A stretch of 57,424 nt of DNA, the filler included, from Platydemus manokwari (lineage: Eukaryota): the NCBI GenBank assembly GCA_037951405.1. It is 6 parts of 6 records of this genome, joined end to end, with 100 filler letters (N's around TTAATTAATTAA, not from the genome) between each part and the next. Parts side by side here need not be neighbours in the genome. Positions count along the whole stretch, not along the records: positions 37,954 to 47,657 come from JBBMOY011214767.1; 5 more parts are not named here. One strand, written 5' to 3'. Shown piece after piece: positions 37,954-57,424 of the stretch. The notes under the pieces were generated by a model. The model was not told the origin of the DNA. It did no database searches and saw nothing but the letters and a program-made list of their open reading frames with translations. The position numbers and the translations under genes are program-made. The first letter of the stretch is position 1. Every line of letters starts with the position of its first letter.

Positions 37954-38027
37954 TGGGCGGCATGTCGTCTTCTGTTGCTCGGATGCGATCTGCGAAGGCA
38001 AAAAAGCATACAAATTGTGATTAGGCG

Positions 38028-38094
38028 CCGTCCGTCCGTCCGATTGAAGCCATTGCCCTCGTTCAACCTGCTTGATCCAGCATTGGTTATATTT
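38028..38094 (-). repeat. Left-arm terminal module (38-nt hairpin block plus CAATC(GGAC)n)
   Basis: The reverse complement of 38057-38094 is identical to 47530-47567. The reverse complement of 38028-38046 is identical to 47590-47608. Confidence 0.95.
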
Positions 38095-40225
38095 GAGGGC
38101 ATGGATGATGCTTATTTCCTGTTCTTGTGTCTTTGGTGTCGCTTGCTCTATCCTTCCGTCGGCAGCAAAGGAGATTTTGGCTGTCTTCTTTTATGGGGTT
38201 GATTTCTAGTGGTGTTTCGGTGTGTTTTTCCTTGTCCTCTGGGGCGTTTGTGATCCAGTCCTGTCCAGGACTTTTTTTTCCAGGTTGCGCCGATTTTCCC
38301 GGCTGTTTGGTTTCTTTCCCGGCGAAGACGCGCTCAGCTTTTTCGAGGATCGCAGCGTAGGACGCTTTTTCTTCATTTTGCTCCGCTATGAGGCGTCTTG
38401 CTTCTGTGAGTTCCGCTAGGGCCCTCTGGAAATCCGCGGCTACCTTCGGATTTATTTCTGTTTCCTCCTCCGTGCTCGTGTTCTCTGCTGAGGCCTCTTC
38501 TTCTGATGTGGTGTCTTCTGTTTGGGTTTTGTGGATAATGTCTTTCTGCTTCTCGATGATCTGTCTTTCCTCTTTGATTGATGTTAGCAGCGTCTCGGTC
38601 GTCTCCTTGATCTTGTTCATTCTGGCGACCTCCTTTTTGATATTTTGTAGGATTGACTCATGCTCTCCTTTATCTTGGTCTTGTTTCCTCATGAGGGCTT
38701 CTTTTGCTTCCAGCAGTAGTCTTATTTCCTCCTTCAGTGCTTGTCTTTCTCCACGTATTCCTTTGAGGATTGCCTCGTTTTCCGTCTTAACTTGTGTCAG
38801 CTTGGCGACTTCTTGCTGGACCTGGATTTGCGCTGCTAATATTTCCTGCAGCATTTTTTCGGTGTCTTCGCTGTTGTCTTGTCTTGAGGCGTTCTCCTTG
38901 TCTGTTACTTTCTCTGTCATCCTTTCTAGCTGCTCCTTGAGGTCCTTGACTTCCTTTTGTAGTGCAGTTTTTTCCGTCTGGGTGATGCCCCAGGCTGCCT
39001 CTGTCCTGCTCCGAGCTTCTTTGAATGGTATATTTTCCATGGTGGATAGCTTGAGCGTTTCTTTGCACTGTTGCAGGTAGGGGCAGCCCAGGTATCGGGC
39101 TCCGTGGGCTCCCAGGCAGTTGGCGCACTTCCGGTTGGTGTTGGCCTTCCGGTAGTCCTCATCTTTCTTGGCCAGTGGGCAGTCGTTGTAGCTGTGGGCC
39201 TCGGCGCAGTACCTGCAGACTTCCGGTCCACGACAGCTGGGTCTTGTGTGTCCTGCTTTAAGGCATCTGGAGCACTGTATTACTCTCGGGATGAGTCGCT
39301 CCGGCTGTTGTTGTCTTCTGTAGAAGTTGATCTTGTCTGGGATTTCACATCCCTCTGTTGAGATGATGGCCACCGTCGTCGGGGTGTTATTTCTGGTGGT
39401 GATTCTCTCTGCAGTCTTGAAGACGAGGTGCGGGTTGTCTTTTTGGAGTTGTTTCTTGATATCGTCGTTGCTGAGTTGCGTGGGGATCCTCTTGATCACC
39501 CACCTCCTCTCCTCTACGAAGCTTGTGATCTCGATCTCCGTGTCGTCGTCCAGCTGCAGTATTTTGCCGCTTTTGGCGACTTGGGCCAGCAGGATTCTGG
39601 TCGTCTGCATCTTGTTAATGAAAGCGACGATTCCATCCCGAGTCTTTCGAAGGCTGGCGATGGTTCTCTTGCCTGTCGTTGTTTCGATGAGCGAGATGAT
39701 TTTATCTCTTGTCATTGCCGCTAGCAGGTTGGTGTCTTTGTTGATTTGCCGGATGGCAACTTTGGTGACTTCCTTCTGCCCTGCTTCAGCTGTGGCTTCT
39801 GGTTGAGGTCTGGCTTGAGACTTGTCAGCTGCTGTCCCTCTGCCGGCCGCTGACTTCTCTGGTGATTTGCTCTTTCGCCCTGATAAGGGCGCTGTGGTTA
39901 TATTTTTTGCCCTGAGAAGGGCAGTGGGTGGTTCTGTTTTTGCCCTGAGAAGGGCATTGGGCGATTCTGCATCAGAACCTTGTGGCGGTGTCCCAGGAGA
40001 CTCACTGCTCTCTGGGGCGGGAGTTTCCGCTGGTCGCCCTGATAAGGGCGTCGTGGTTATATTTTCTGCCCTGATAAGGGCAGTGGGCGGTTCGATGTCC
40101 GAACCATTAGAAGGTTGGTTTGGCGGCCCGCTTGAAGCTGGGCTGCAAGCGGTCGCTGGCTTGCTTGTGGCTTGAGTCCCCCTCGTCGCCGCCGGCCGTT
40201 TTCCTTTTCCTCTTGACTTGGACAT
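38087..40225 (-). CDS. Gag-like ORF1 paralog (three CCHC knuckles, long coiled coil); frame open to 40396, likely start MSKSRGKGKR at 40225 (712 aa)
   Basis: VIQCSRCLKAGHTRPSC...CRYCAEAHSYNDC...CANCLGAHGARYLGC is preceded by an RRM-like VIKRIP...AERI region. No pol frame follows. The ATG at 40396 lies upstream of the minus-strand TATA box (40348-40354), so the 40225 start is preferred. Confidence 0.88.
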   Translation of the reverse strand: MSKSRGKGKRPAATRGTQATSKPATACSPASSGPPNQPSNGSDIEPPTALIRAENITTTPLSGRPAETPAPESSESPGTPPQGSDAESPNALLRAKTEPPTALLRAKNITTAPLSGRKSKSPEKSAAGRGTAADKSQARPQPEATAEAGQKEVTKVAIRQINKDTNLLAAMTRDKIISLIETTTGKRTIASLRKTRDGIVAFINKMQTTRILLAQVAKSGKILQLDDDTEIEITSFVEERRWVIKRIPTQLSNDDIKKQLQKDNPHLVFKTAERITTRNNTPTTVAIISTEGCEIPDKINFYRRQQQPERLIPRVIQCSRCLKAGHTRPSCRGPEVCRYCAEAHSYNDCPLAKKDEDYRKANTNRKCANCLGAHGARYLGCPYLQQCKETLKLSTMENIPFKEARSRTEAAWGITQTEKTALQKEVKDLKEQLERMTEKVTDKENASRQDNSEDTEKMLQEILAAQIQVQQEVAKLTQVKTENEAILKGIRGERQALKEEIRLLLEAKEALMRKQDQDKGEHESILQNIKKEVARMNKIKETTETLLTSIKEERQIIEKQKDIIHKTQTEDTTSEEEASAENTSTEEETEINPKVAADFQRALAELTEARRLIAEQNEEKASYAAILEKAERVFAGKETKQPGKSAQPGKKSPGQDWITNAPEDKEKHTETPLEINPIKEDSQNLLCCRRKDRASDTKDTRTGNKHHPCPQI
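39876..40082 (-). repeat. Five 16-nt hairpins YGCCCT-TMTC-AGGGCR
   Basis: Copies at 39876-39891, 39908-39923, 39941-39956, 40035-40050 and 40067-40082. The outer pair covaries between C-G and T-A. Confidence 0.92.
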
Positions 40226-40347
40226 ATTTTCCGGTATTGTGCAATCGTGGCTGGCTGCCAATGGTGTAGCACGTCTGTCTCCGCTGAGCGCTGAGAAGCA
40301 CTGTGTGTGTGATTGAGGATGTCTCAGAATCGCCGCCGATATCGGAG

Positions 40348-40469
40348 TTTTATACCTCGGCGACGAGGAAGACGAAACGGGCGGTTGCGACTGCATGCGT
40401 GTTTCTAGCGATTTGATTGGTTGTGCCGAATTCGTCCTTTTCCTCGTCCTTTCCGAGCTCGTATATAAA
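40348..40469. promoter_or_regulatory. Putative mirror-symmetric bidirectional Pol II promoter
   Basis: TATAAAA on minus (40348-40354), TATATAAA on plus (40462-40469), ATTGG (CCAAT box) at 40416-40420. Inverted sub-motifs: CTCGG/CCGAG, GACGAGGAA/TTCCTCGTC, GACGAA/TTCGTC. Confidence 0.7.
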
Positions 40470-40931
40470 GCCGGTAAAGGTGCCGTTTTTTTACAACTAC
40501 ATCAGACATCGTGCTTTGCATCCCATGTGCTTGGCAGCGTTTACCCATTCAAGGGGCCCTGAAATATTCAGACGGATTGTGTTTGCTTCTTGCTGGATCT
40601 TACTTTGATGTGTACTTTGTGGCGGATTTTGTGACTTCAGTGATGTTTCAGTGAATTTCGAGTGCGGCGAGCGAAGCGGAGCGGTTCGTAAGTAGGCAAT
40701 AATTCAATATATACTTTAAACCTAGGTAAAATAACTAGCCATAGCCTTAGCCTTAGCACTAACTAAATAGACAATCTGTAACTGCTAACATAAATAACAT
40801 CGCTAACTATTAAATAATTAAACAAGATAAATATATAAAACAGGAATAACTAGTCAAGAAGCTAATTAGGTAATCATAGCTTAAAAGCAAAACTTATTAA
40901 CTACTCAAAGACAAGATTAGCAACGGTAACC

Positions 40932-42563
40932 ATGCCCCCCACTACTAGAGGCAAATCTGTGGAGAAAGTTGCACCAGCAAAAAGTCAGGAAAGGACAAAC
41001 GGTGTGGCTAAACAACCCAGACCGCGGACGGTGAAGCCCATCCCCGAACTTCCGGAGGAAGTCCGGCAGGAAAAAGTAAAAGAACAGAGGGACAAAAGAA
41101 CGGAAGGACTACTGATCCGCGTGACACAATTGGAAGGAGGGGAGTGCCGCCTAACATCAATAGGTAAAAAGGCGGCAATCAATGTACTGGAAGGCGGACT
41201 CGGGACTCGAGCGATAAGAATCATCTCATTCAACCCAGATAAATCGATGACAATAACACCTAACAGAGGCTCGCCAGTAGATAAAATTATAGACAAAATA
41301 GTAAAACAGGACGGACCAGAAACCATGGACCTCCAAACACATGGAATCAGGATTAAACTTGAACTCGTTCCTCCAACATCAAAGTTCGTGATAAAAGGAA
41401 TAAACCCGACGACGAAAATAGACAAGATCCAAGAGGAATTAACAGCTGAAAACCCGAAGGTGAAGTTCGTCAATGTTGAAAGGCTGTATGGAAGCAACGG
41501 CATAACCACGTCGATAATAGTCGCAGTATGTGAGAGCGCAGATACTCCACACAGTATAAGATACATGGGGAGGGAGAAATACACTGAAAATTTCATTCCC
41601 CCCGTAATCCAATGCGCCAAATGCAACAAATTTGGACACACGAAAAACGTATGTCGGGCAACCCACCCGACTTGCAAATTTTGCAGCGGACAACACTGGC
41701 ACGGGGACTGCCGCTATGCGAAGGAAGATAAAGACTATAAGCTGAAAAACAAAAATAGGAGGTGCTCCAATTGCCAAGGGAACCACGGAGCCAGATTTGG
41801 CGGATGCCCGGCCCTCAAGCTGACAAAACTGGCCTGGAGAGAAGCCAACCTAACCAACACATCAATGCGGATCACCAAGTGGAGACAAGAAAACACGAAA
41901 AATCTACCGGAAACACAATCAGAAGTAAGAATCATTCAGGCCGAGATGGCAAACATAAAGAATAAGCTAAGTAGCGAACATCCAACAGACGCAAAAAGGG
42001 ACCAAAACAAAAACGGGAGAGAAAACCCTGCAACCCCTAACTCGGAACAAACGAAAGAAATAGTAACACAATGGAAAGCAACAGCAACGGAAATAGCAAA
42101 AGTGAAAAAAGACACAAAGTCAACAGAAGAAAGACTTACTAAGCTAAATAAGAACATAGAAGAAGCAGCCAACAGAATGGAGCAGGCTAAAAAGGAGATG
42201 ATGGATATGAAAGCAGATATCACAATAATGATTGAAGAAGGGAAAAAAGAACTCAAGCAGCTAGCCGACAATATAAAAAACGATTTGGCAGCCAAAGACC
42301 AAGCCACACAGGAGGCACTAGGAGGAAACTCGAATTGGCAAAACGAAGTTGCTCAAACCTTGAGAGGAATCAAGGAAAGACTCAACCAACAGGCGGCAGA
42401 GCTCAGAGAGACAAAAAGAGAAACAGCAGGTATGATACAAGAAGCAGTGGCGTTCGCCACGGGCAGGAGAGCCAACCCAGCATGGAAAGTGGCGGAGGAG
42501 GAAGAAGAAACAACTGAGGAGAGCAGCACAGCAACAGAGGATACAGAGGGAGAAGAAAACTAA
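40932..42563 (+). CDS. LINE ORF1, gag-like nucleic-acid-binding protein (three CCHC knuckles plus coiled coil)
   Basis: VIQCAKCNKFGHTKNVC...CKFCSGQHWHGDC...CSNCQGNHGARFGGC. It lies 41 nt upstream of ORF2. Confidence 0.93.
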   Translation: MPPTTRGKSVEKVAPAKSQERTNGVAKQPRPRTVKPIPELPEEVRQEKVKEQRDKRTEGLLIRVTQLEGGECRLTSIGKKAAINVLEGGLGTRAIRIISFNPDKSMTITPNRGSPVDKIIDKIVKQDGPETMDLQTHGIRIKLELVPPTSKFVIKGINPTTKIDKIQEELTAENPKVKFVNVERLYGSNGITTSIIVAVCESADTPHSIRYMGREKYTENFIPPVIQCAKCNKFGHTKNVCRATHPTCKFCSGQHWHGDCRYAKEDKDYKLKNKNRRCSNCQGNHGARFGGCPALKLTKLAWREANLTNTSMRITKWRQENTKNLPETQSEVRIIQAEMANIKNKLSSEHPTDAKRDQNKNGRENPATPNSEQTKEIVTQWKATATEIAKVKKDTKSTEERLTKLNKNIEEAANRMEQAKKEMMDMKADITIMIEEGKKELKQLADNIKNDLAAKDQATQEALGGNSNWQNEVAQTLRGIKERLNQQAAELRETKRETAGMIQEAVAFATGRRANPAWKVAEEEEETTEESSTATEDTEGEEN

Positions 42564-42604
42564 AGACCACAAGAAAGCAAGTTAAATCGCCGAGGAAACC
42601 AACA

Positions 42605-45600
42605 ATGGCAAGAGAAAACATAACTTTAGCGCAGTGGAACTGCCGAGGTATTGAGGGAAACCTCCCCAGCATGAGACAACTACTGGGAAATGACGTGGAC
42701 GTCCTAGTACTCCAAGAAACCCATCTAAAGCAATCACAAAAATATAGAAGCCGAGGATTCACCGCTATCAGAAGGGACAGACCGAACAGAGAAGGAGGGG
42801 GGGTAATGATACTAGTCAGGGAAAAACTCCAGATCATCAATCAAGAAAGCTTTGGAACAACCAACATGGAGGGTGTCAGTGCGGAAATAGCTGGGAACCC
42901 AAGGAACGTAACAATAATTAACATTTACTGCCCGGTAGGTAGAATAGAAGAGGAAGACATAAGGGAACTACAGGACAGATTGAAGACTACTACCATAATA
43001 ATGGGGGATTTTAACTGCCACCACCCAGTGTGGGGCTCTAGAAGAAGCAGCGCAGGAGGCAGAAGACTATTGGAATTTATTGAAACCAACCAGCTAACAA
43101 TCCTTAATGATGGGTCCATCACAAGAGTAGATCCTCGGCCGACCAAAAGTGACTCATCAGTAGATATTACGATAGTGACAGAGGACCTAGCAGGAAGTCT
43201 ATGGGAAATAGGTGAGGACACTACCAGCGACCACCTCCCAATCATAGTCAGGACCACCACCAAACCCAGGAAAAACAAAGACAGCACTAGGCCCACATTC
43301 ACGTACAAAAACGCCAACTGGACCAGCTTCATAGAAGAGCTAGAAAGAATAGACCTTAGGAGGAGAGATCAGGAAGAACTAGAGTCATATGTGGACAGAT
43401 TCACAGTAAGTATTTTAAAAGCTGCTACCAAGCACATACCAAATAGAAACATGCCTGAAAACATCAGAAGGGCAGCACGACCAACCACACATGGAGGACA
43501 CAGAAACAACCCAACAAACCGTGAAACAGAGGAGGGTAGTCCGCCCACACAAAAAGACAACAACACACCAAGAAACAAGAATCCAGTAATATGGTGGAAT
43601 AATAATTGTACACTGGCGGTACGAAACAGGAAAAAAGCGCTACAGAAATACAGAAGACAGCGCACAGAAGAAAACTATGAAGAATACAAAGAATACAGAA
43701 ATTCAGCCAACAAAACAATCAAAAAAGCCAAGGAGACCGAATGGAGAACCTATTGCCAGAAGATCAACCCTGACACACCAGTAAGCGATGTCTGGAAGCA
43801 GATTAAAACAATAAAAGGCAGCAACAGGACGAGTAACATCCCCACAATAAAACAACCTACAATGGCAATCACGGATAAGGAAAAAGCGAGTGCATTTGCA
43901 GAACACTTCCATAAAGTTTTCTCCAATGAAAGGACCGGAGTGCAAGAACTAGAGAGAAGGAAGAAATTCTTAGAGGAAGCAGAGGAGGAACCACAGGCGG
44001 ATATTGAGGACTACTATATGGATACGGACCTAACTGTGGATGAAGTGACAGCAGCAATAAGGGAAAAATCAGATACGGCAGCAGGAGCTGATATCCTCAG
44101 CTACACGATTTTAAAAAAGGTACCAGCAAAAATAATAGGAACATTGACAGAGCTGTATAACACCATCTGGAGGACAGGAAACATCCCAAAACAATGGAAA
44201 ACGGCAATAATAGTGCCCATACGAAAAGAAAACAAAGAAGGCCACAAAGTAGACTCATATAGACCCATAGCGCTAACATCTCACATAGGAAAAATCATGG
44301 AAACGGTAGTAAATAAAAGAATAAAATTCCACATGGAGAAAAACGACATATACAGCACGACCCAATCAGGCTTCAGAAGTCAGCGAAACACCATGGACCA
44401 AGTCATAAAACTAGAGAACGACGTCAAGAAAGGTTTCAAGAAAGGAGAAAAGACTATAGCAGTCTTCCTGGACCTAGAACAGGCCTATGACCAGTGCTGG
44501 CGGGAAGCAGCACTCCTTAAACTAAATAGAATAGGAATAGTGGGAAGAACATTCAAATACGTAGCAAGCTTCCTCCAGGATAGGACTTTCAAAGTCAGAA
44601 TTAGAAATGAGGAGTCACAGACCTTATGCCAGGAAAACGGAATACCCCAGGGCTCAGTCATCTCCCCAACAATCTTTACAATATTAGTAAACGACCTAAA
44701 TGAAGTGATAGAAGATGAGAAAACGGGCCTCTCACAATTTGCGGATGACTGTGCCGTATGGAGAAGCGGGAAAGATGTAAAGTTCACCAGGATCAAACTG
44801 CAAGGACAACTCCAACACATCGCGCGCTGGATGGAAAAATGGGGTTTCAAAATTAACACGGAAAAGACAGTCAGCATGGTTTTCAGCAGGAAGAGAAAGA
44901 AAGAGTATATGGACATCAAGATAAAGATCCAAGAGAAGAAAATAAAAAGAGTAGCCAGCACCCGCTTCCTAGGAATGATCCTGGACGACAAACTGACCTG
45001 GAAGCCACATATCGATAAAGTAGTAGAAAAGGGCAAGAGAGCCCTCAATATTCTCCGAGTCATCAAAGGGAGCGGATGGGGAGCCCATACGTCAACAATG
45101 ATAACACTGTACAAGGCACTGATTCGAGGAAAAATTGAGTACGGAAGCATAGTATACGATGCAGCCCAAGAAGGCACGAAGAAGAAATTAGACACCATCC
45201 AAAATATGGCAATGAGAACAATCCTAGGAGCAGGTAAGTGTACGTCGAAGGAAGCCATGGAAGTCGCCCTAGGTCTAACACCGCTCAACATAAGAAGGAA
45301 ACAGCTAACGTATAACTACTGGACCCGGGTAGCACAGGATGAGAACCACCCGGCATTTTCGACATTCACAGAAAATAGGAGCAAATGGGGAGGAATACCG
45401 ATCTTTAAATTACAGAGACCAGCAGGATGGGATGCGGCGGAAGAAATGAAAAAATCAAAAGAACTGGCTAATACAATCCTGGAAATTAAAACACGAAGAC
45501 AAACAGTTCCACCCTGGGAGTGCAAACTACCAATAACAGATAGCAGCCTGGCCACGAGAATATCTAAGAACACAGGAGACCTGGAGGCCAAGTGCATCAC

Positions 45601-46465
45601 CGAGGAATATATAGAAGAAATTAGACGAGACAACCTAATAATATACACAGATGGATCCAAAAATAACCAGGGGCAAGTAGGAGCAGGGATAGTCGTCCCA
45701 CACTGGAACATCTGCAAATCCTTTAAGCTGACAGACCATGCCTCAGTATTCACAGCCGAACTCATAGGGATCCTCAAGGCAATCGAAACAGCGACGGAGA
45801 ACCCACCAAACAAACTAAGCATACTGACAGACTCACTGGCGGCAGTTCACGCACTAGGAAACTTTACAAGAGGAACAAGACCGGACATAAAGGAGGAAAT
45901 CATAACCAAAACCACACACCTTAGAAACTTGGGATGCCAAATCAGCATAGGTTGGATACCGGCGCACAGGGACATCGCGGGAAATGAGAAGGCAGACAGA
46001 GCAGCCAAAGCAGGTATATACAGTAAAGACCAAATCCAAACCGGCCTGGGAAAAACTGAAGGGAAAAGCATCATCAAAACCTACGTGCAAAAGAAGTGGC
46101 GGGAACAATGGAAGGACAGCCCGAGGGGACGACTGGCGCACCAACACCTGAATGAGCCAACATTTAGACCCCAAGTCAAGGAACTAATGAAAATTCCCAC
46201 TAACCAGAAGATGTGGAGACTGCGACTGGGATACTGGAAGGATCGATACGTCAGCCCACTATGCATGCAGTGCCTGGAGACCAACACAATAGATCACTTC
46301 ATGATAACCTGCAGCAACTTCACAGAAGAGCGGAAAGACCTGACAGATTATTTCACAAACATGAACAAGGTAATGACGACCAAAGAATGCCTACATATAA
46401 ACAGCGACAAAGAAATACAAAGATTAGTCAAACAGTACATCAACCGAACAGGAAAGGACATATAG
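42605..46465 (+). CDS. LINE ORF2: APE endonuclease, reverse transcriptase, RNase H, CCHC (I group, e.g. I/Nimb/Loa-like)
   Basis: APE: QWNCRG, LQET, GDFNCH, SDHLPI. RT: YRPIALTS, QSGFR, FLDLEQAYD, GIPQGSVISP, FADD. RNase H: IYTDGS, TAEL, TDS, WIPAH..GNEKAD. C-terminal CMQC..H....C. Uninterrupted 1286 aa. Confidence 0.97.
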   Translation: MARENITLAQWNCRGIEGNLPSMRQLLGNDVDVLVLQETHLKQSQKYRSRGFTAIRRDRPNREGGGVMILVREKLQIINQESFGTTNMEGVSAEIAGNPRNVTIINIYCPVGRIEEEDIRELQDRLKTTTIIMGDFNCHHPVWGSRRSSAGGRRLLEFIETNQLTILNDGSITRVDPRPTKSDSSVDITIVTEDLAGSLWEIGEDTTSDHLPIIVRTTTKPRKNKDSTRPTFTYKNANWTSFIEELERIDLRRRDQEELESYVDRFTVSILKAATKHIPNRNMPENIRRAARPTTHGGHRNNPTNRETEEGSPPTQKDNNTPRNKNPVIWWNNNCTLAVRNRKKALQKYRRQRTEENYEEYKEYRNSANKTIKKAKETEWRTYCQKINPDTPVSDVWKQIKTIKGSNRTSNIPTIKQPTMAITDKEKASAFAEHFHKVFSNERTGVQELERRKKFLEEAEEEPQADIEDYYMDTDLTVDEVTAAIREKSDTAAGADILSYTILKKVPAKIIGTLTELYNTIWRTGNIPKQWKTAIIVPIRKENKEGHKVDSYRPIALTSHIGKIMETVVNKRIKFHMEKNDIYSTTQSGFRSQRNTMDQVIKLENDVKKGFKKGEKTIAVFLDLEQAYDQCWREAALLKLNRIGIVGRTFKYVASFLQDRTFKVRIRNEESQTLCQENGIPQGSVISPTIFTILVNDLNEVIEDEKTGLSQFADDCAVWRSGKDVKFTRIKLQGQLQHIARWMEKWGFKINTEKTVSMVFSRKRKKEYMDIKIKIQEKKIKRVASTRFLGMILDDKLTWKPHIDKVVEKGKRALNILRVIKGSGWGAHTSTMITLYKALIRGKIEYGSIVYDAAQEGTKKKLDTIQNMAMRTILGAGKCTSKEAMEVALGLTPLNIRRKQLTYNYWTRVAQDENHPAFSTFTENRSKWGGIPIFKLQRPAGWDAAEEMKKSKELANTILEIKTRRQTVPPWECKLPITDSSLATRISKNTGDLEAKCITEEYIEEIRRDNLIIYTDGSKNNQGQVGAGIVVPHWNICKSFKLTDHASVFTAELIGILKAIETATENPPNKLSILTDSLAAVHALGNFTRGTRPDIKEEIITKTTHLRNLGCQISIGWIPAHRDIAGNEKADRAAKAGIYSKDQIQTGLGKTEGKSIIKTYVQKKWREQWKDSPRGRLAHQHLNEPTFRPQVKELMKIPTNQKMWRLRLGYWKDRYVSPLCMQCLETNTIDHFMITCSNFTEERKDLTDYFTNMNKVMTTKECLHINSDKEIQRLVKQYINRTGKDI

Positions 46466-47529
46466 AAGTAGGGCACAAGTAAAACAGAAAGGATTAGGTC
46501 AAGTAACGAACCACAGCAAGACAACCTGGCCAGCAAAGAAGTAGAGGACGGTAAGTAACCCCCAAGACGGTGGAACCTAGAAACAGAGAGAGGATCTCCC
46601 AGGTGGAACGAGACCCAGACAGAGAAGAAAAGATGACGAGGTCCCCAAACCGAGGAGAGCTAGAGATGGAGCCAACAGCAACTCAAGTACAAGAGAACCA
46701 ACAGAGGGTGCAAACATGGCTACCAAAAACCAAAGAGGGATAAAACAAATAACCTAAACAACGAATAGCCAAATAGACTAAAGGATTAAAAATAACACTC
46801 AAAATAACTAAGCAAGTAGAAAATCTAAGGAAACGAACAAATAAGTAAACAAACAGTAAACAGTAACAATAAGATAAAAGCCCAGCAAAAGATAGACAAA
46901 TATAAGTAACAAAAATCAAAACCAGGAAAGACCTAGCACTAAAGTAGAACTCAGACTATAAAAGCTAAAATACTAAAAAGTCTATGACAAATAACCTAAA
47001 GCAATGAAAATTACAATCGCGAAATAAGTAAATTTCAAAGAATACAACCTAAAGAACAATATAAAGTACAAAGGCTTACCAAAACGGCCACAGTAAAACA
47101 TAGCAAATTATACTAGAACCTAAAAATAGGCGAAAGGCGGTCTAGCAGGGCACCCGAACAATCTCCCCAGCGACGATCAATGGGGAGCAAACCTCAAGGC
47201 GGCCCTGCGGGATAAAAAAACATAAAAAGCAAACAAAAATTTAAAAAAATAAACCAACTAACGAACTAAAAAAGAGTAACAATAGGCGAAAACAACGAGC
47301 AAAACCGCATAAAGACCGCAAACAAGGAACCGAAGAGAACTCTCGACCTGTCCACAGTGCTGCGAAAGGCCTGGAAGCTACCTCTGGCAAACTGGCAGCT
47401 GCAACCCGGGAGGCACGACGTCTGCTGCAAGGAAGCGATCGACCGAAGCGTGAAGAAACAACAAACGTAGCAACACAGTCAACTCATCAACAAAAGAATG
47501 AAGAAGATAACGCCCTAAAAATACGCCTT

Positions 47530-47612
47530 AAATATAACCAATGCTGGATCAAGCAGGTTGAACGAGGCGGAATTTTTCTTTTTTTTTCCCAATCGGACGG
47601 ACGGACGGACGG
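47530..47612 (+). repeat. Right-arm terminal module (38-nt hairpin block plus CAATC(GGAC)n)
   Basis: AAATATAACCAATGCTGGATCAAGCAGGTTGAACGAGG, then a T-rich spacer, then CAATCGGACGGACGGACGGACGG. Confidence 0.95.
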
Positions 47613-47657
47613 GCCGTTTTTTTAGCTCCCAAGCGGATCACACACACAGTGCTTCTC

Positions 47658-47757: not shown

Positions 47758-49189
47758 CCATAGGCATCTCAAATTTAAATATAGGTACTCATAGCAATGC
47801 TATGAATCACAATAGTTCTATCTTTATTAATTTTATTTTTATCACAACTTTGTTAATATTTATTATATCAAATATATTATATTTTATTGAGTTATTGATT
47901 ATTTTTATTATACATGCTACCTAATAATCTATTAGGAATTAGATATTGGTGAAAACATCTAATATTTCTCAAATGGTCTAACATTAAATCATAATAAACC
48001 ATCGATCGTTGTGTTGTTGATTTGTTATTTCAATCATCAGATTATAACCCACTGGTTTCCATCAATATCATTGGTATTTGAATTTTGATATTTCTTTGAC
48101 GTAGTTGAAATATTTGTAAGAATGTGATATCGAATCTAAATGAAATTATTTTTGATTCGAATCCACTAATGAGCTAATTATAATACCTATAATTTAATGA
48201 TGATTCTAAAAGCCTACTAACTATAACAAATGTGTGTGAATTGCTGACAAAAAAGTTGACTCAAATTAGAATTTTAAAATCTAGATAATATAATAAAGAA
48301 ATATAAATTTTCGAATATTTTTATGTGGCCCTTTGGATTATAGCAATTTAAATGTTTGTTTACCTCGAAATTCAATGAGTTTATTGATTAACAAGATTCG
48401 AGCAGTTCACAGCTTTAGGATTCACTGATTCAACAAATTTAGTAAATACATGATTTCCAAATTCACAAGTTCAAAGTTCACTTCTTAAACTCTGTATAAT
48501 TCCGGAATTGTTTCCGTATTTATTCTCCTCCTACTTCCAATGATTATGTGAGTTAACTTTTAAGTTCCATTGTCTGTTAACAAAATGTAAGTGATTTTTT
48601 TCTGATTTTGCTAGTGTCAATGACAAATTTTATCTGGTTTCGCACCTGTACTACATTATATTCTTAAAACGATTCTAATTTGATTCTGGTATTCTTAGTA
48701 TTCAATAGTTTTCAACCACAACCTTTGTATTGCCTTAAGTAGGTTAAGCCATTGTTTTATGTTTCTTAAAATAACCATTAAAACCTTCTGTCTATCTTGA
48801 TAGTTGCAACGTCTGACAAGGAGTTTCAACAATGAATTGGCTGAACATTTTATGAAAATCATATCAGTATAAAAATAATTAAATGGTTTTGAAATCGTTA
48901 ATTTAAGATGGAAAAATTTATTACAAAACATAAAAATTTCTCTTTTGAAAATCAAAATCTTAAATTCTGGTTTTTATAGTCCAAATTTTGTAAGTCGTAG
49001 TCGGTTTTCACAGGCACGAATATGTTCACTGGGAGCTTTTTGTAGTCAAATTTTCTCGTTCCGCGATTGACCCGTATTTCATCAATTACCAGGCTAAAAT
49101 CTAAAAAACTGAATATAGTTATGTAACAATAATAAAAATCATCTCCGTGGTGAAATTTATTTTTCTGATCTAAAATGAAAATACAAGAT

Positions 49190-49790
49190 CATATTTATTC
49201 TATATCCTATAATCGATTTATACGTGGTTTTCTCCATGACGAGATGATCTCAGCAATCAATATAGATGTACTGTACCACAACATAAAAATGAATAGAAAG
49301 ATGGAGAAGGCGATGGAGAATGTCTCTCAGACACACCTTATAAACAATAGACAATAACAATAATAATAGAAATATCTATACTATTATCCCCTGTACGTAT
49401 GTACAGGCCGTCATTTTTTCTGTTACTGCGTGTTAGACATATTGGCGGGGCTGTTTATTGGAGACCTAGTCTCCTTCGCTATGTGAGACCTATATAAACT
49501 GTATGATTCCACAATAGAAGTAGAAACAAGAAGTGAAGCCAACTTATTTGAACGCTTACTATCTAACCCTATTCGTCTCAAAATTCCATCATTCTGTGGA
49601 TCCCATGATCCTAAGCAACCTACATTTAACACATGAACATTCACTGAATTTCTGGATAGTCTAGCTATTTGAACTGCCAGGTCTTCATACTTTCGGTGGT
49701 TTCTCTCGAAGCTATTCCTAAAGTTTTCTTGTTAATCAAGTGGGACCTACAGATCTACGAGGAAAGTATGTTTAGAGCGTGACTTTGCAA
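49190..49790 (-). mobile_element. 5'-truncated RLE non-LTR retrotransposon 3' end (NeSL/R2-like)
   Basis: In frame KHTFLVDL*VPLD*QENF...RKYEDLA...LNVGCLGSWDPQNDGIL...SIVESYSLYRSH, the RLE endonuclease tail (D, KY and GxLGxW motifs). It is followed by a putative 3' UTR whose end is approximate. Confidence 0.8.
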
Positions 49791-50844
49791 AAATAATTCA
49801 TTTCTGAAATTATTAAATGAAAAAATAATAATATCAATAAAGTTTTTTGAAATGAATTTCAAATTGACTAAAAAGAATAATTAAAATTGATTGTTTAAAA
49901 GTTCGAAATAAAAACTTAATAAATTTTCATATCATGGTAGCCCATATATTTATGTTGATATATTTTTTCTGGACTTTCAAAATGGAAAATCTAAAATCAG
50001 CAATCCAAATGTTAAATTTTCCCCCAAAGATCGAACAAATTACGCTTCAAATTGATAATCGTAAATATAATAATGCTGCAAATATTAATTATTTATTAGA
50101 GAATATATTTTAATTATTTTTAATATATTTTCTATGTTTCAGATATCTCGAAGAAATATTTTCTCTATTAGAGCAAATCTATATTTTTCAACTAAATTTG
50201 TAGCTAATTGTTAATTCCAATGGAACTAGTAATAATTTAGTTCAATAATTTTTTATAATAATAATAAAGAATAATAATAATTATTATTATTATTTTAAAG
50301 AATAATAATAAATTTATAAATAATAATTAAAAGACGATTCATTAAAAACCTTGAATGGTTCATTATTTAAGATCAATTTATAATAATACAGATTGTAAAT
50401 ATCGAGAGAGAAATCAATCTGCCTTAAAGATGTAATTTCATTTTCAGGTTGTTATATCAAGCGCTAATGAAATAATATTCAATTTTTTCACGAAAAGACA
50501 ATATTGTTCGAACAAGAAAATAAATATTTGGCGAGAATTGCAACGACAAGCAAATATTTACAGATGTTTTTCATTTTACACAACCAAACAAATGAGTTTG
50601 AATGATGACACTCATCATGGTTGATAGAATACAGAATCGTTTTTAAATGCATCTTGCACTTCATTTGACTGTTAAAATCCATCCCCGGGCCATTAAAAGA
50701 AGACGCCATATAAAAGGACGCATTGAATATTTTTCGATTTTAAATTCCATTGAAAATATTTCATCAGGTTTTGAATAGATTTTTCAAATTATTAAAATAT
50801 TAATTTTTCACAAATATTTAGGAAACATTTATAAAATGTAATTA

Positions 50845-50900
50845 ATATATATATATATATATATACATGTGTGTGTGTGAGAGAGAGAGTGTGTGTGTGT
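50845..50900. repeat. Compound (TA)n(TG)n(AG)n(TG)n microsatellite
   Basis: Directly visible dinucleotide runs. Confidence 0.9.
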
Positions 50901-53900
50901 TAGATTTGATATATTGTTATATGTTATTAAAATGTAATGTGAGTTCTAGAAAGTTTCTATTTAAATCTAACTGGTGTAAACTATGATAAGAGTTAGAATT
51001 GAAAAATTATAGATAAATATTAATAAATAATTCGATAATTAAATAAAGTATAATTGATTATTACAAAATAATTAATAATAACGAGTATAGTAAAATTACA
51101 ATTTGAAATACAATAAACAAATGTGATAACAATAGACAAATAACTGAATAATAAATGTTATAAACAAATAACCAGGGTCATTTTTATTAATGTATATATG
51201 ATGGGTTCTGTTAGATCGATGAGATTTTTGTGTGATTCTGTCTTTTGTGAAAATACTCACAAGGAACCTGAATTCCTTTCAAACTTTGAAGGTAGCCAGA
51301 TCTAATGTCTTTCTATGATTTATTTAGTTGATTTGAACTTTTAATTTGATTGGATCCAGATTCAGGATTTAAGTTGGATTCATTTTATTGTAAAGAATAC
51401 AATAATAATTTTTAGTTGGTTGAAAATTCATGCTAAACAATTTGAATATTGGATGTAAAAGCTTACTTAATTTGCTTCACAGAAGGTCGCAACTGGAACG
51501 GTTCCGCATTAAATTTTTTTCTAATTATAAGTTATTTCCACTTTGACTTGTTTATAAACACTTCTCCAAGCAACATAATGCGCCTAATATAATATAAGTA
51601 GTATAGCACTTTTGCTGTCTTGCTTCTCTTATTTATACTGATTTTCGGATCTTTGTTTTCTTTCTAATTTGGTATTATTTAAATAGTTTTTAAAAATGTT
51701 TTATAACTGTTTTTTTTTTAATTTTTTAACTTTACAATTTATTTTACTTATTTTAATGTTTTATCTCTTTGACTTTTAGGTTATACGAAATTCTAGGTAT
51801 CAGTCACTTAAATTATTTTTATTCTATTATGATTTTTTGAGGTTGGGATTTAGTACACCATATATATCATACACGAATCATACACGAATATTAACCATCA
51901 AACAAAATTAAGAAATCAATTTTCATTTCAAAGACCAATTTTTCATTTCTCACTGCTATCGTGTGCTGATTAATTTTACTTATTAAAACTAATTTTTGTA
52001 ATATATTATTCAGTATGTTTGAAAATGTTAATATAACTGATAACTGATTGTTTGTCGGGACTTTGTCATCGACTGATAAACAAATTTGAATAAAACTATT
52101 GAGTTTTCCGACAACCCAATAACGATTTTCTTCAAATATTACAACGTGCGTAGATTTATTAGATTTTATAAAATATTGACCTCTAGATGTTTGAGATTTT
52201 CACGATTATTCAAATTCTTATCCATTAAATGTTAATATTTAATAATATTATTATGGAATTCATCAAATAAAAATCATGTCACATGGGGAAATACAGAAAA
52301 AAGGTTATTAAACTAATGCATCGACTGAATTTTATGAAAATTACAAATAAAAATGACCATTTGCAAACATAATTTAACTTTCGAAATTTGCCTTGTTAAA
52401 ATTAGTCAGTTGAAAATTCCCTATCATTAATATAATAATTGACCAATAAAGATAATTACAACCTATGACGGATGAATTAAAATGGTTTTCGTTGCCATTA
52501 ATTGATAATCCTTGTTAAACCATGTGTTATGGCTTTGGATGCAATTGCAGGATGTAATTTAGCAAATTAATACGGTCTATCTATAATATTGAATCTGCAT
52601 GATTATATATTAATTCATAACTGTATTTTATAAACAAATCATTTTCTTCTACAGAATATAACAAATAAAATTCCCAACCTTTAGATTACAAAACTTAAAT
52701 AATAAAATTCATTATGAAAAGAAATTATTTTAAGTATAATTTATAAATAAAATAAACCAACAAATCAGAATTAACCAAAAATTTAAACTTCATTTTCACT
52801 CGAAACATTTTTTAGAATTTTTAGCTAAAGTTAAGAAAGGAGGTCCTAAAATAAAATTTTTAATTTGTTGAGTGTATTGCAAAATCTATATAGTTAATTT
52901 AATTATATTCTTTTAAAACATTTCGAATTTTTAATTTAAGTACTTAAAAAGAATTTTAATTGTTTGAAATAAAAATATTATATACACTAGAGCTTCATAA
53001 TATCCTAAAAATTTATTATTTGAAAATGTATCAAAGTAGATCGAATTGCAATTCATTGAAAATTAGCAAGGATCCCCTTTTTAATATTAGAAGCAAATTC
53101 AGAGATACTATCAATTTTTACAATTATTTTATAAAAATAACCAATGATATTATTAAACATGTCTGTAGTTAATTAACTCGACCTCTAATTTAAAAACATT
53201 TAAAAACTCAAATAATCATACAGATAAATAATCATACATAGAATAAGAACTTGGTTTAAAAACTATGATTGTTCTTATTAGACATCCTTAAAAGAGAGAG
53301 AAGTATTCGCAATTATATACAAAATTAAGTTATAAAATTATCTCAATCGCGAAAATTCATTATTACAAAAGTAGGTCAAAGAACTCCTTTTCTTAACTTA
53401 AGCCGAATTTTTAAAAACAAAATTTTATGATTTAAAAACAATTTTTTTTCTTGACCAACTTAAACAATGAAATAACATTTAAACTTTCAACTAAAAAGTT
53501 GCTACAAACACAATAACAGATTTGTAAAAATAAACAATTCACCTAATTCTTTAAAGAAACATTTTAAATTTTTTATTAAAAGCAAATTATTTAAAGGCAT
53601 TCTTTGAATATATTAATAAGATTCACTACTTGAACTATAGACGATCTTAACAGCTAATCTACAGTTTGATAGATTTTGTAGTCATTTTCTAGTTTACCAT
53701 TTTATAATTCCCAGACTAGTAGAATCAAATGAACCACCGGTTTATTTAATTAATTATCGATTCATTCTGAACAATGAGTATATTTTGTGAATAGATTTCG
53801 ATTCATTGTATCATTTACTAAACATCTATTAATTTAAGAGATCACATAAGTTCTGCAAACCTTAATTAATAAATCAATTTACACAAAAAAACAGGAATCA

Positions 53901-56900
53901 ATAAAATACATCATTTTTATATTTTACGTTATTCAGAAGCACATCGAAAACAGAGTTGATATTTATGTGTTGAAGAATGAAAACCAGAAAACAACAATTT
54001 GAATAATATTCAATTCTGACCCGATAAAAACAAGCCACCAATAAAAAGCTAGATGTTAATTAATGAATTTTTGTTCTCCCGCGAGTATAGTGTAATTTAA
54101 AAATCGTCTGAACAAAAGTGTAACAAAAAAGTTGTTTACCAAATACATTTGGTCAAGTTTCACAGCACACCCTCGAGCTAATTTAAATTTTTCTCGTAAT
54201 CATTCACTAAGAATGTTCTGATATCTGTTGAAGATATAAATACAGGTCAGTCATACACAAATTTTATCCAATAGCGCTTAGACGGTTTTTTGGTAATTCC
54301 CCGTTGGCTTTAAACTTAAAAATAAAAATAAAAAGACAACACAATCAATTATTTATTTCATTAATCACGTAATGACATCAACTGAGCATTTGGTTTGATT
54401 TCTGATTACTTTATTTGTGTAAATTTTCAGTCGAACTTGCACAGTAAAATAAATGTTTCACTGTTGGCTTTTTTAGACATTAGAACCAGCATGATATCTT
54501 GGCATATTTTCTATTCTTTACAAATAGAATCTGTGGGGCACCTACACTGAGATTAACGTAATCAATTTGAATCAATGACATTGTTCTCTTTTCTTGGTTG
54601 CTAGGCGACTGAGTTGCTTAGAATATCAAATATAATTTTTTCTCTATCGGGTTTGTCGGTGGAGTTTAGCCAAGTCTGAAATTGTACACCGTACACCTCA
54701 ATCTAATTGTTTTCAATACTGTTTGTAATATATAGCATTCAGTAGTTTATAGGACGAGAAAGGGATTCTCACAGAAAAATGCGGGTGGATAAAATTGATG
54801 CTCATAATTCAATTCTTTCTCATAAGCTAAGAAACCTAAAACCAGCCCTTATGAATAACAAGGAAATATTTTGATCTAATAATTTCACTAATAATAAAAA
54901 GCCAATTTTGAATTGTATAAAATCGATAGTTGAACAATAAAACACTAAGCCATGTTTTGGTGCCATAGTTTATTGAAGTGAAATCAATACATCGATTATT
55001 ATAACAAAATTAGATTGATTTATTTGCTAAATAATATCGATTATTAATGGTATTGAGTGAAGCAGAAGCTTAATAAATAACAAGCATTGAAACAACCTGT
55101 TTTTTACAATTATTTTATAGTATTGATCTAGAACCCTATAATCATTTGATCTGTCAGAAATAATTTATTATTAATCATAAATACCAATAATTGAGATGAA
55201 TAAAATATGTGATCAACAACTTTATACAATTCTAAAATTTCGTTATATATATATTCTTAATTAGTTTTCTGTGAATGGATATGAGATAATAATTTCTGTG
55301 TTTATTATAGTTCCGTGATTTGATGAGTTTGCTTTGTGCTATTGTTTGATAAAACGTGTTAAATTTTTGTGTTGCGTATTTGTGATAACGATTTTTTCTG
55401 CACTCAATCACAGATTATTTTTGCAAACGACTCTTTAACTGTCGTGTGTGCACGTATGTGTGTATGTTTTTTAATGTTTGTTTACCGACAATAAGCTTGG
55501 AATATCTGATATACATACTCTTAGATTATATTTGTATTTATTAATTTAGGTTTTAATTACTTTTAGGATCATTGAGATATCTTTACTATTATTGTAAAGA
55601 TTTTTATCATTTAATTATTTTTATTATCATTATACTATTAAAAGTAGTTTATTTATTTTTTATAATTTTCATATTATTATAATAATTATTAATAAATTTA
55701 TTATTATAATTTATTAAATTCCGGTTAATATTTTTGCTGTATTATTTCTAATTTTATAATAAATAAATCACTAAATCCATGATCAATATCCAGATGGTCC
55801 ATGAATTTCATACTTTTTTGGTTGTGTAAAACAATGAAGTGTTTTGTTATTTTTTTAATGGGGTGTATTAATGTGTAAATGAATGATAGTTTATTTATTT
55901 ATATCTGGGGCTTTCTTAATGTTTTCTTAATTCATCGAAAAATAATTGAACTTTAATATTATCTTTCTTTCCTTGATAAAAACCCGTGCGACACATTTCA
56001 TGCATTTTTCTATGTATGTCGGTGTCTTTACCAGTGATTTATGGATGAAGATACACAGCATTAATTTCGAGTTATAAATTCTATCGGTATTTCAGATGTC
56101 CAGGATTATTGTCTAAGATTAATATTACTTTAAAGGTCAATTATTTTCATTATAAGGACTTTCCAACAGTTGGCTTTAGAACATATGAAAAACAGTTTTG
56201 AAAAAGTTGGACAGCAGTCCAGATTTTATTATTTCATTTCCCAATTACTTGAATCATTCATTTATCCTTTCTTTTCAATGCCCTGGGATTCTCTGTTTCA
56301 TAAATGAGTATCGGTATTATTATAAAATCACCAGATAAATATTTGCAAAGCAGTAATATTAATCCATGTTTAGAAAGCTTATTCGATGGCTGTAACCTAG
56401 TCAGGTGATTTGACGATTTCTACATCCAGCATGAAAGATGTACGAAATAGAAAGTTTTAAAAAAAATAGCTTTTATTGTTCATATATTAATGACAACAAT
56501 ATTGGATATGTCAAGAAAAATATTCATTGTTAAATTAATTCCCTCGCTAATTTCTAACTGAATTTCGAAAGAAAATTAATATAAAAAATTTCAAAGTGGA
56601 TAATGAAAATAAAATCGTAATTCTTTTTCCTCATCCAAATGTGTACTGATGACGAGTTAGTTCACAATGTCTGTTTAATGACTATTTAGATCACTTTTTA
56701 TATTCCAATCCTTATTTTCGAAACAATTCATAAAGGACCGATCAAGATACATTTTATTGCACTGCCGATATCTACTATTTGTAGGCAATCGAACACAAAT
56801 AAATATATTAATAATTTATTCATCCAAGAAAAATCTGATCTAATCCCATAAAATCGAAACAGCACAATCTCGATAAGATTCATCTCAACCGATCTAAAGC

Positions 56901-57424
56901 GCATCCGTGATATTGCTGATTATGTCGAACACAGACCAATCATAATAAATCATTATAAAATTCAACATTTTCGTATAATTTTCAAAATAAGAATAAATGA
57001 TAACAAATTAGTGTTTAGACTGGGAAAATGATAAATTAATTAATGCCTTGGGAATAAATTTTCTTTTCTCATTTTCCACTTGGTAAAATAAGTTTATGAT
57101 TTATTTAGGAGACAAAGAACGAGAAATATTTCGTTATTAGATCTGGTTTTTGTTTTTCTGTTCTGAAATACGAAATTCAAAATGATATTATTTTTAGTCT
57201 CAAATTTAATTAGAGGACAGAATTTTTGTCTTTGTACAAAACATGACGGTGTTGGTCTATTTTATTTATTTATTTATTTATTTATTTACCGGGGAAACTG
57301 TGTAATATCGATTGTTTATCTTTTTCGTGAGAATTAATTTCAATTTTTTAAACAAATAATATATTTACTGATTTGAAGAAATGAATTTGAATTTGAAATT
57401 TCATAAATCTCGAGAATATGCACA

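Follow-up and report, generated by a model that had tools for sequence, protein, structure and literature searches.

We analysed a 57,424-nt stretch of DNA (the window) from Platydemus manokwari, assembly GCA_037951405.1, in which a gag-only retroelement, here called gag-A, carries five RNA hairpins near the start of its open reading frame (ORF). The hairpins lie within positions 37954-47657, one contig (JBBMOY011214767.1) of this fragmented 911-Mb assembly, where gag-A (minus strand) stands head to head with a partner that encodes a reverse transcriptase (RT), the pol arm (plus strand), on either side of a host H2A-H2B promoter. We propose that the hairpins are stem-loops of the type found at the 3' ends of histone mRNAs, that gag-A, an element of the long interspersed nuclear element (LINE) type, likely captured them, and that they have been kept as sites which SLBP, the protein that binds histone stem-loops, would occupy without cleavage of the RNA. 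Judging from sequence, we regard this reading as evenly poised between right and wrong. The feature itself is real and its origin is largely explained, while its function appears plausible but putative.

Five hairpins of the histone type

The five hairpins, each of 16 nt, start at 39876, 39908, 39941, 40035 and 40067, which places them 32, 33, 94 and 32 nt apart from start to start. On the sense (minus) strand of gag-A they read YGCCCT-U(A/C)UC-AGGGCR. They are the whole set of matches to GCCCT-N4-AGGGC in the window, where 100 dinucleotide shuffles gave a mean of 0.02, and even a single relaxed histone-type hairpin appeared in only one of 2000 Markov resamples of gag-A. The sense RNA of the 241-nt array region folds with z = -5.1, equalled by none of 200 shuffles, and its minimum-free-energy and centroid structures both contain all five hairpins. 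Coordinates, shuffles and fold thus agree with a preliminary description of this DNA, which had placed five hairpins with 6-bp stems and 4-nt loops at this spacing in the gag-only ORF, and it is confirmed that they are genuine and far beyond chance.

The same description had also seen an A at the second loop position in three copies, copies read in two frames and no such hairpin in the pol arm. All of this holds: A was counted in three of the five loops, the hairpins fall at codons 48, 90 and 101 in one frame and at 59 and 112 in the other (the array spanning codons 48-117 of gag-A), and a relaxed scan of both strands of the pol arm was negative, as it was for the rest of the window outside the array. 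Its claim that the outer pair covaries between C-G and T-A needs correction. The array consists of a duplicated pair unit (60 nt, 92%) and one 33-nt in-frame duplication, and the C-G/U-A difference is not independent covariation, because it goes back to one inherited change that set the first hairpin of the ancestral pair apart from the second, and CpG decay on both strands would also give it.

40067 to 40082, minus strand: hairpin 1, type 1, with a U-A outer pair and loop UAUC.
40035 to 40050, minus strand: hairpin 2, type 2, with a C-G outer pair and loop UAUC; ACCA comes next, as at many histone 3' ends.
39941 to 39956, minus strand: hairpin 3, type 1, loop UCUC; together with a second type-1 copy it stems from the 33-nt in-frame duplication.
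39908 to 39923, minus strand: hairpin 4, type 1, loop UCUC; top match both of Rfam Histone3 (17.5 bits, cut-off 34) and of a model built from host stem-loops (17.3 bits).
39876 to 39891, minus strand: hairpin 5, type 2, loop UAUC.
39850 to 39923, minus strand: last hairpin pair with its linker and a downstream relic, homologous to the 3' terminus of a probably ribozyme-headed retroposon.
40034 to 40093, minus strand: copy of the pair unit that lies at 39875-39934; the two agree at 92% of 60 nt.

As a host reference we took 15 stem-loops from the 3' side of host histone genes. Six positions are invariant in all 15 (G2, U6, loop U1, loop U3, A11 and C15), and all five hairpins carry all six. Hairpins 3 and 4 are identical to the host H2A and H2B stem-loops at 14 of 16 nt, and the guanine of the second stem pair is one that SLBP requires (PMC10388802, excerpt). 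Comparison with host stem-loops, which the preliminary description had proposed, therefore bears out the histone likeness through these six shared positions. The difference that it saw at the first pair is no defect, because 3 of the 15 host stem-loops have U-A (two) or C-G (one) there, the other 12 having G-C. A further host-invariant C, two bases 3' of the stem, is present after hairpin 2 only. The likeness of the opposite strand to lambda boxB was rightly judged coincidental: the plus strand reads GCCCT-GANA-AGGGC as boxB would, with a 4-nt and not a 5-nt loop, and the reverse strand of any histone stem-loop gives the same resemblance.

While the hairpins resemble the histone stem-loop, they are not a histone 3' end, since their position, the downstream element and the Rfam score (below) all fail to fit. 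They lie inside the gag ORF and not behind a histone stop codon. All 15 host stem-loops are followed by a processing motif, YARTT at +10 to +17 in 11 and CT..GCA in four, and these host motifs follow none of the five window hairpins and none of 38 hairpins in other gag-A copies. The array could instead act as an attenuator, at which histone-type 3' cleavage or termination some 240-450 nt into the RNA would limit full-length gag-A RNA. It does lie at about histone-mRNA length from the histone start site, and ACCA follows hairpin 2, but the lack of the host motifs at all 5 and 38 hairpins and the continued spread of full-length gag-A copies make this improbable.

The G+C-richer histone genes of the assembly (loci L031-L035, L044-L047 and L142) carry pyrimidine-rich downstream motifs of these two kinds. 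The vertebrate downstream element is purine-rich. A pattern for U7 snRNA, made from the complement of the host motif and the known Sm-site motif, had 116 matches in the genome and 63 for its control, an uninformative contrast, and no matching U7 RNA was found. The genome also contains two matches to the SLBP RNA-binding domain, which differ in G+C.

Origin of the hairpins and possible constraint on them

Exact matches to YGCCCTTNTNAGGGCR number 984 in the genome, while the reversed control yields 3; for a tandem-pair pattern the corresponding counts are 325 and 7. We fetched 76 loci among the first 100 matches listed, nine of them picked for gag-A-like loops. Among these listed matches, 68 of the 76 loci are the 3' end of one retroposon, four are gag-A and four are unassigned, three of these last four visibly carrying the same module. 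This donor retroposon (L061-L140, L185-L235) is dispersed, non-autonomous and high-copy, about 430-480 nt long, with a fixed 5' end and a (GAA)n or (CAAA)n tail, and a first look gave 2013 candidates. Its 3' end consists of two hairpins, 32 nt apart, or 39 nt apart with a different linker in a second subfamily. The donor head is a probable ribozyme like that of hepatitis delta virus (HDV), a model-based call: the HDV-like drz-agam-1 model gave four weak matches in 36 sources, not all of which include the head, at 21.7-31.9 bits and below the cut-off of 37. A tRNA head was absent from the 14 donor loci scanned, a hammerhead was found in the module neither by eye nor by Rfam, and 5' extension, locus sampling and loose ends yielded no autonomous parent. 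The whole-element fold of one donor copy has z = 0.2. Five donor copies (L195, L210, L219, L222 and L229) start 0-6 nt 5' of hairpin 1, two of them following (GAT)n runs, and in L214 the tail starts one base past hairpin 1.

The homology between donor and gag-A extends beyond the hairpins. With the hairpins excluded, the linker and the 28 nt downstream of the last gag-A pair align to the donor end with a score of 3.2, while shuffles scored -4.8 +/- 0.9 and none of 200 reached it (6 x 26 comparisons). One locus, L191, retains more of the donor terminus, and in L181 a donor body is joined to gag-A exactly at the pair. Capture of the module by gag-A from the donor is likely, and likely in that direction because the homology ends at the donor's tail. 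Copies of the gag-A lineage carry one pair (L012, L179), two pairs (L020, L030, L074, L339) or, in the window, five hairpins; on these counts one gag-A lineage has evidently held the module in frame and later duplicated it from two to five hairpins. The preliminary description overlooked this source in another retroposon's 3' module, as well as the insertion at a histone promoter described below.

In another reading, the pair is a signal for the elements' own proteins, read by reverse transcriptase or ORF1 protein in priming, template switching or packaging, with the histone likeness incidental. The pair sits at the donor 3' end, where LINE machinery commonly recognises stem-loops (PMC6510757, excerpt), L181 is joined exactly at it, and, of the 15 donor 5' truncations, 5 lie 0-6 nt ahead of hairpin 1 (p ~0.007, a rough value). 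However, gag-A has a 3' block of its own, common to the pol arm, relatives without hairpins exist, and such a signal leaves unexplained why exactly the host-invariant histone positions are retained; we consider it quite unlikely. The packaging signal suggested in the preliminary description is likewise unlikely in a family-wide version, as older gag-A relatives have no hairpins.

Its other suggestion, a palindromic array in DNA, would have a dimeric transcription factor bind the perfect GCCCT-N4-AGGGC arms near the promoter. Only on the sense strand, though, does the spacer keep T at its first and third positions, and the second donor subfamily, with its different linker, alters arm letters yet keeps the RNA pairing through a U-A swap and a U.G wobble. 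This strand-specific loop and the preserved pairing leave the DNA reading very improbable. Of the roles put forward in the preliminary description, SLBP mimicry is still the best candidate for a function.

For selection on the hairpins we judge the sequence evidence to be moderate. Between gag-A and the donor family (17 and 42 segments), none of 24 stem positions differs, compared with 15 of 39 in the flanks (p = 4e-4). Fourfold-degenerate sites that are structural vary at 6 of 162 and others at 114 of 970 (p = 0.0013; six sites, related copies), and the 12 host-invariant sites are less variable than 286 control sites (0.039 vs 0.112, p = 0.04). In gag-A copies, all 56 hairpins retain G2 and loop U1, while loop position 2 takes all four bases; the counts on gag-A copies leave out one misregistered row. 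The pairing kept through changed letters in the second donor subfamily points the same way. In the donor copies stems decay about as much as flanks, as expected of dead copies, which speaks neither for nor against selection.

A number of observations weigh against our reading. The stem figure of 0 in 24 is biased, the donor family having been found with the hairpin pattern, and the copies share descent, so that copy-level p values overstate the evidence. Taken over all 24 stem sites, the comparison with controls is not significant (0.056 vs 0.112, p = 0.12), and recurrent variants occur at 10 of 24 stem sites and 107 of 286 control sites. A broken pair is present in 17 of 56 copy hairpins (10/30 and 7/26) with no compensatory double change, and two diverged gag-A relatives, L320 (45% amino acid identity) and L306, have no hairpins in the stretch available. 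Conservation across gag-A copies, which the preliminary description had put forward as a check, holds for G2 and loop U1, pairing is broken in part of the copies, and these two relatives lack the hairpins. As to the likeness itself, loop position 2 is U or C in all 15 host stem-loops and never A, the base of three window hairpins; in gag-A copies it is mostly C, with A in one sub-lineage. The two 5'-flanking adenines that the minimal SLBP site is reported to include (PMC10388802, excerpt) directly precede only one hairpin, hairpin 3 (at 39956), though most host stem-loops also have C at -1. The Rfam Histone3 (RF00032) scan that had been proposed did return a histone-type match, at best 17.5 bits and E = 1.1, well below the cut-off of 34. 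That cut-off is a harsh test for this host's stem-loops, the genuine ones scoring 26.5-34.3 bits with one of four matches above it and the L044 stem-loop missed. With the host-built model, three of the hairpins are the top-ranking matches of the window (E = 0.06-0.22). Finally, ribosomes would clear an SLBP site within a coding region, an element at a histone start site could obtain a natural stem-loop by read-through, and the pol partner at the same promoter has no hairpins.

Several of these points would be accounted for if the hairpins were passengers, that is, if a donor 3' end came to lie in frame within an N-terminal region of low complexity that is prone to repeats, and slipped into tandem copies, any function being the donor's only. 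The N-terminal region of gag-A varies at second codon positions (0.097) almost as much as at fourfold sites (0.118), L306 carries an unrelated tandem repeat at the same place and L320 none, and the stem-wide test is non-significant, with about a third of hairpins broken and no compensation. Set against this are the flanks that have diverged from the donor while the stems have not, the fixation of G2 and loop U1 next to a free loop position 2, and the growth in hairpin number within the gag-A lineage. We view the passenger account as a real but lesser possibility, and return to retention for SLBP binding after describing the elements.

The two arms and their insertion sites

The contig holds the following features besides the array:

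38028 to 40324, minus strand: gag-A, a gag-only, non-autonomous LINE-type element whose 5' junction lies 30 nt behind the H2A TATA box.
38087 to 40225, minus strand: gag-A ORF, encoding 712 aa that include three Cys/His knuckle-like motifs and a coiled-coil tail; its product shares 29% identity over 303 aa with gag-B, the ORF1 product of the pol arm.
38028 to 38098, minus strand: 3' block common to the pol arm (42 nt, 98%) and (GGAC)n tail.
37954 to 38030, minus strand: host H2B 5' untranslated region (UTR) plus the first codons, with the ATG at 37963; the empty allele matches it at 100%.
40325 to 40493, no single strand: host H2A-H2B divergent promoter, with TATA boxes at 40348-40354 (minus) and 40462-40469 (plus) and ATTGG at 40416.
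40494 to 47612, plus strand: the pol arm, an autonomous-type LINE at the H2B start site, with ORF1 at 40932-42563 and ORF2 at 42605-46465 (apurinic/apyrimidinic (AP) endonuclease, RT and RNase H by Pfam) and without a histone-type hairpin.
40482 to 40493 and 47613 to 47624, plus strand: left and right copies of a 12-bp target-site duplication, the left one at TATA+21 to +32 of H2B.
47637 to 47657, plus strand: 5' start of another gag-A copy, which follows immediately on the pol arm; all 21 nt match 40293-40313 in reverse.

The proteins of the two arms are related (gag-A vs gag-B, E = 2e-40), and there is no pol between the gag-A ORF and its tail. For the gag-A ORF the ATG at 40225 is the most likely start, because a longer frame extends back into host promoter DNA. 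A search with the gag-A protein gave no match at E <= 0.001 among 7994 scored candidates of 388-1236 aa. The pol arm fits the features of the I group of LINEs (I, Nimb, Ingi, R1, Loa, Tad1), with a Cys/His-knuckle ORF1, and relatives with the same domains share 34-53% identity. Upstream of the gag-B ATG, positions 40688-40921 contain a GTAAGT donor-like motif and an AG just 5' of that ATG, which suggest an intron in the 5' UTR of the pol arm.

Positions 40325-40475 are 94% identical to an empty allele (locus L142), which has an intact H2A ORF on one side and the H2B 5' UTR on the other; that UTR is also the left end of the contig. The two head-to-head arms are separate insertions on either side of the H2A-H2B promoter. 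We rejected a single bidirectional element with terminal inverted repeats, as the spacer is a host promoter with an empty allele, the "inverted repeats" are shared 3' ends, and the arms differ about 20-fold in contig depth (in run X1, roughly 200-600 for gag-A and 11-29 for the pol arm). The 5' and 3' halves of the gag-A arm may derive from two copies joined by the assembler, because its 5' flank is H2A and its 3' flank H2B.

Other copies point to a shared target geometry. In L143 another gag-A subfamily has inserted independently at the same H2A site, and L159 is a truncated gag-A copy with a 12-bp duplication behind a TATA-like box. TATAWA stands upstream of 9 of 15 full-length gag-A 5' ends; the corresponding counts are 2 of 20 for flanks of the control retroposon (p = 0.003) and 2 of 15 for the opposite strand (p = 0.02). 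Nine other rows are omitted from this count: seven lacked a genuine junction, and the remaining two were truncated copies, of which one had a TATA box. Among the gag-A flanks compared, only L143 and L147 match the histone loci sampled, so that the target looks like TATA promoters generally. Altogether, this looks like a pair of start-site-targeting LINEs placed at a fixed distance behind TATA boxes. Two gag-A copies (L007, L182) lie at nearly the same spot in a repeated SINE-like sequence, behind a TATA-like box.

At the gag-A 5' ends (L008, L012, L019, L027, L143, L184 and 40300-40324 of the window) short, differing initiator-like pieces are stacked, as if each round added bases from the prior host start site. 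Diverged relatives (L163-L175) have the common 3' block with differing microsatellite tails, of GGAC, GAAC, GGAAATC, GGAATT and GGATACA units.

With this geometry, retention for SLBP binding can be set out as a sequence of putative steps. From its position and its variable extra 5' bases, the gag-A element would be transcribed from the host promoter, and from the shared 3' block and target geometry it would be mobilised by the machinery of its pol partner. SLBP could then bind up to five internal sites on gag-A RNA, which, the downstream motif being absent, would escape cleavage. What gag-A would most plausibly gain is export, stability or translation of its RNA, the start of which lies in a histone locus.

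The contig also stands out by composition, with 46% G+C against 26-30% in the other five stretches of the window (1-37853 and 47758-57424). The assembly has two sets of histone genes (L031-L060), one richer in G+C, in which the loop begins with U, and one rich in A+T, which has C as the first loop base and a TTGATTG-type downstream motif. Because of this G+C contrast and the two histone gene sets, the assembly appears to mix two animals, the element presumably coming from the G+C-richer one. In an A+T-rich stretch, 20403-25852 (minus strand) holds exons of one gene, whose translation resembles the ribosome quality-control factor NEMF.

Relation to known systems and wider occurrence

The hairpins share with the histone mRNA 3' end (RF00032, SLBP, U7) the 6-bp stem, the 4-nt loop, the G2-C15 pair, the top U-A pair, loop U1 and U3 and, presumably, transcription from a histone promoter. 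They differ in being five, in lying within a coding region near the 5' end of a non-histone RNA without the host downstream motif, in the A at loop position 2 of three window copies and in an Rfam score below the cut-off.

As an element, gag-A resembles the non-autonomous LINEs that retain ORF1, such as HeT-A, HAL1 and Ag-Sponge (excerpts of PMC5786205 and PMC5537684): it has only an ORF1, homologous to that of its partner, shares the partner's 3' end and outnumbers the partner, and its dispersed copies have varied flanks, a tail and, in L159, a 12-bp duplication. Unlike those elements, its partner has RNase H and is presumably not one of the Jockey, L1 or CR1 sources of that account; gag-A inserts behind TATA boxes and not at telomeres, and histone stem-loops go unmentioned for the three in the excerpts of those two papers. 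The donor, for its part, resembles RIME, NARTc, SIDE and Bov-A, bipartite ORF-less non-autonomous LINEs of the RTE, Vingi, Ingi and R2 groups with HDV-like heads (excerpts of PMC5786205 and PMC6765202), in its size, fixed 5' end, weak ribozyme matches, 5' truncations, microsatellite tail and lack of a tRNA head in 14 loci. It differs from them in ending in two histone-type stem-loops and in having no autonomous parent among the loci sampled.

The placement recalls R2 in 28S rDNA (PMC6765202, excerpt), with a fixed geometry to the host transcription unit and variable extra 5' bases as expected for co-transcription. Unlike R2-type promoter riders, what we describe is a pair of AP-endonuclease LINEs placed by distance from a TATA box, at histone and non-histone promoters. 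Among other elements, the long terminal repeat element 297 inserts at the TATA box of the H3 gene in Drosophila, and Tf1 of fission yeast goes to Pol II promoters.

Tandem pairs are not confined to this genome. A metagenome scan for them gave 51 loci, none matching the donor, gag-A or the core histones H2A, H2B, H3 and H4, and 12 ORFs from these loci matched no histone family in Pfam. A histone-like second hairpin and an A-rich 5' flank are present in 28 loci. An ORF of at least 100 codons stops within 100 nt upstream on the same strand in 22 of the 27 among these whose sequence is long enough, compared with 1 of 21 in the opposite-strand control, the 22 falling into about seven related groups and so not being independent cases. 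On this comparison, tandem histone stem-loops on non-histone sequences recur in other organisms.

In other organisms (L240-L290), tandem histone stem-loops lie 15-70 nt behind the stop codons of non-histone ORFs. Their products include a family of roughly 135 aa (L244 plus ten relatives), proteins that are P2RX7_C-like (L243, L245), GDSL-like (L246) or weakly Bcl-2-like (L261), and others. Elsewhere, L337 is an unrelated repeat with three tandem histone-like hairpins and L338 a satellite of similar half-sites.

The stem-loop/SLBP pathway has been described as the special route of replication-dependent histone mRNAs (PMC13525598, excerpt). In the literature covered, which lies outside most subscription journals and repeat-database notes, we came across neither a retroposon bearing histone stem-loops nor a LINE aimed at histone promoters. 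The broadest version of our proposal combines a LINE pair spaced from Pol II TATA boxes, those of histone genes included, a gag-only member that took up and multiplied SLBP-binding hairpins so that its RNA uses the histone mRNA pathway uncleaved, and a more general borrowing of tandem histone stem-loops by animal mobile elements; we put it forward as tentative and rather less probable than the retention of SLBP sites in gag-A by itself. Independently of the hairpins, a LINE placed by its distance from a TATA box follows an unusual target rule for an AP-endonuclease element. If the broader proposal is true, the array would offer a natural test of how SLBP acts on internal, uncleaved sites, and mobile elements would be using the histone mRNA route, with two hairpins in a retroposon of thousands of copies and five in the ORF of its LINE partner.

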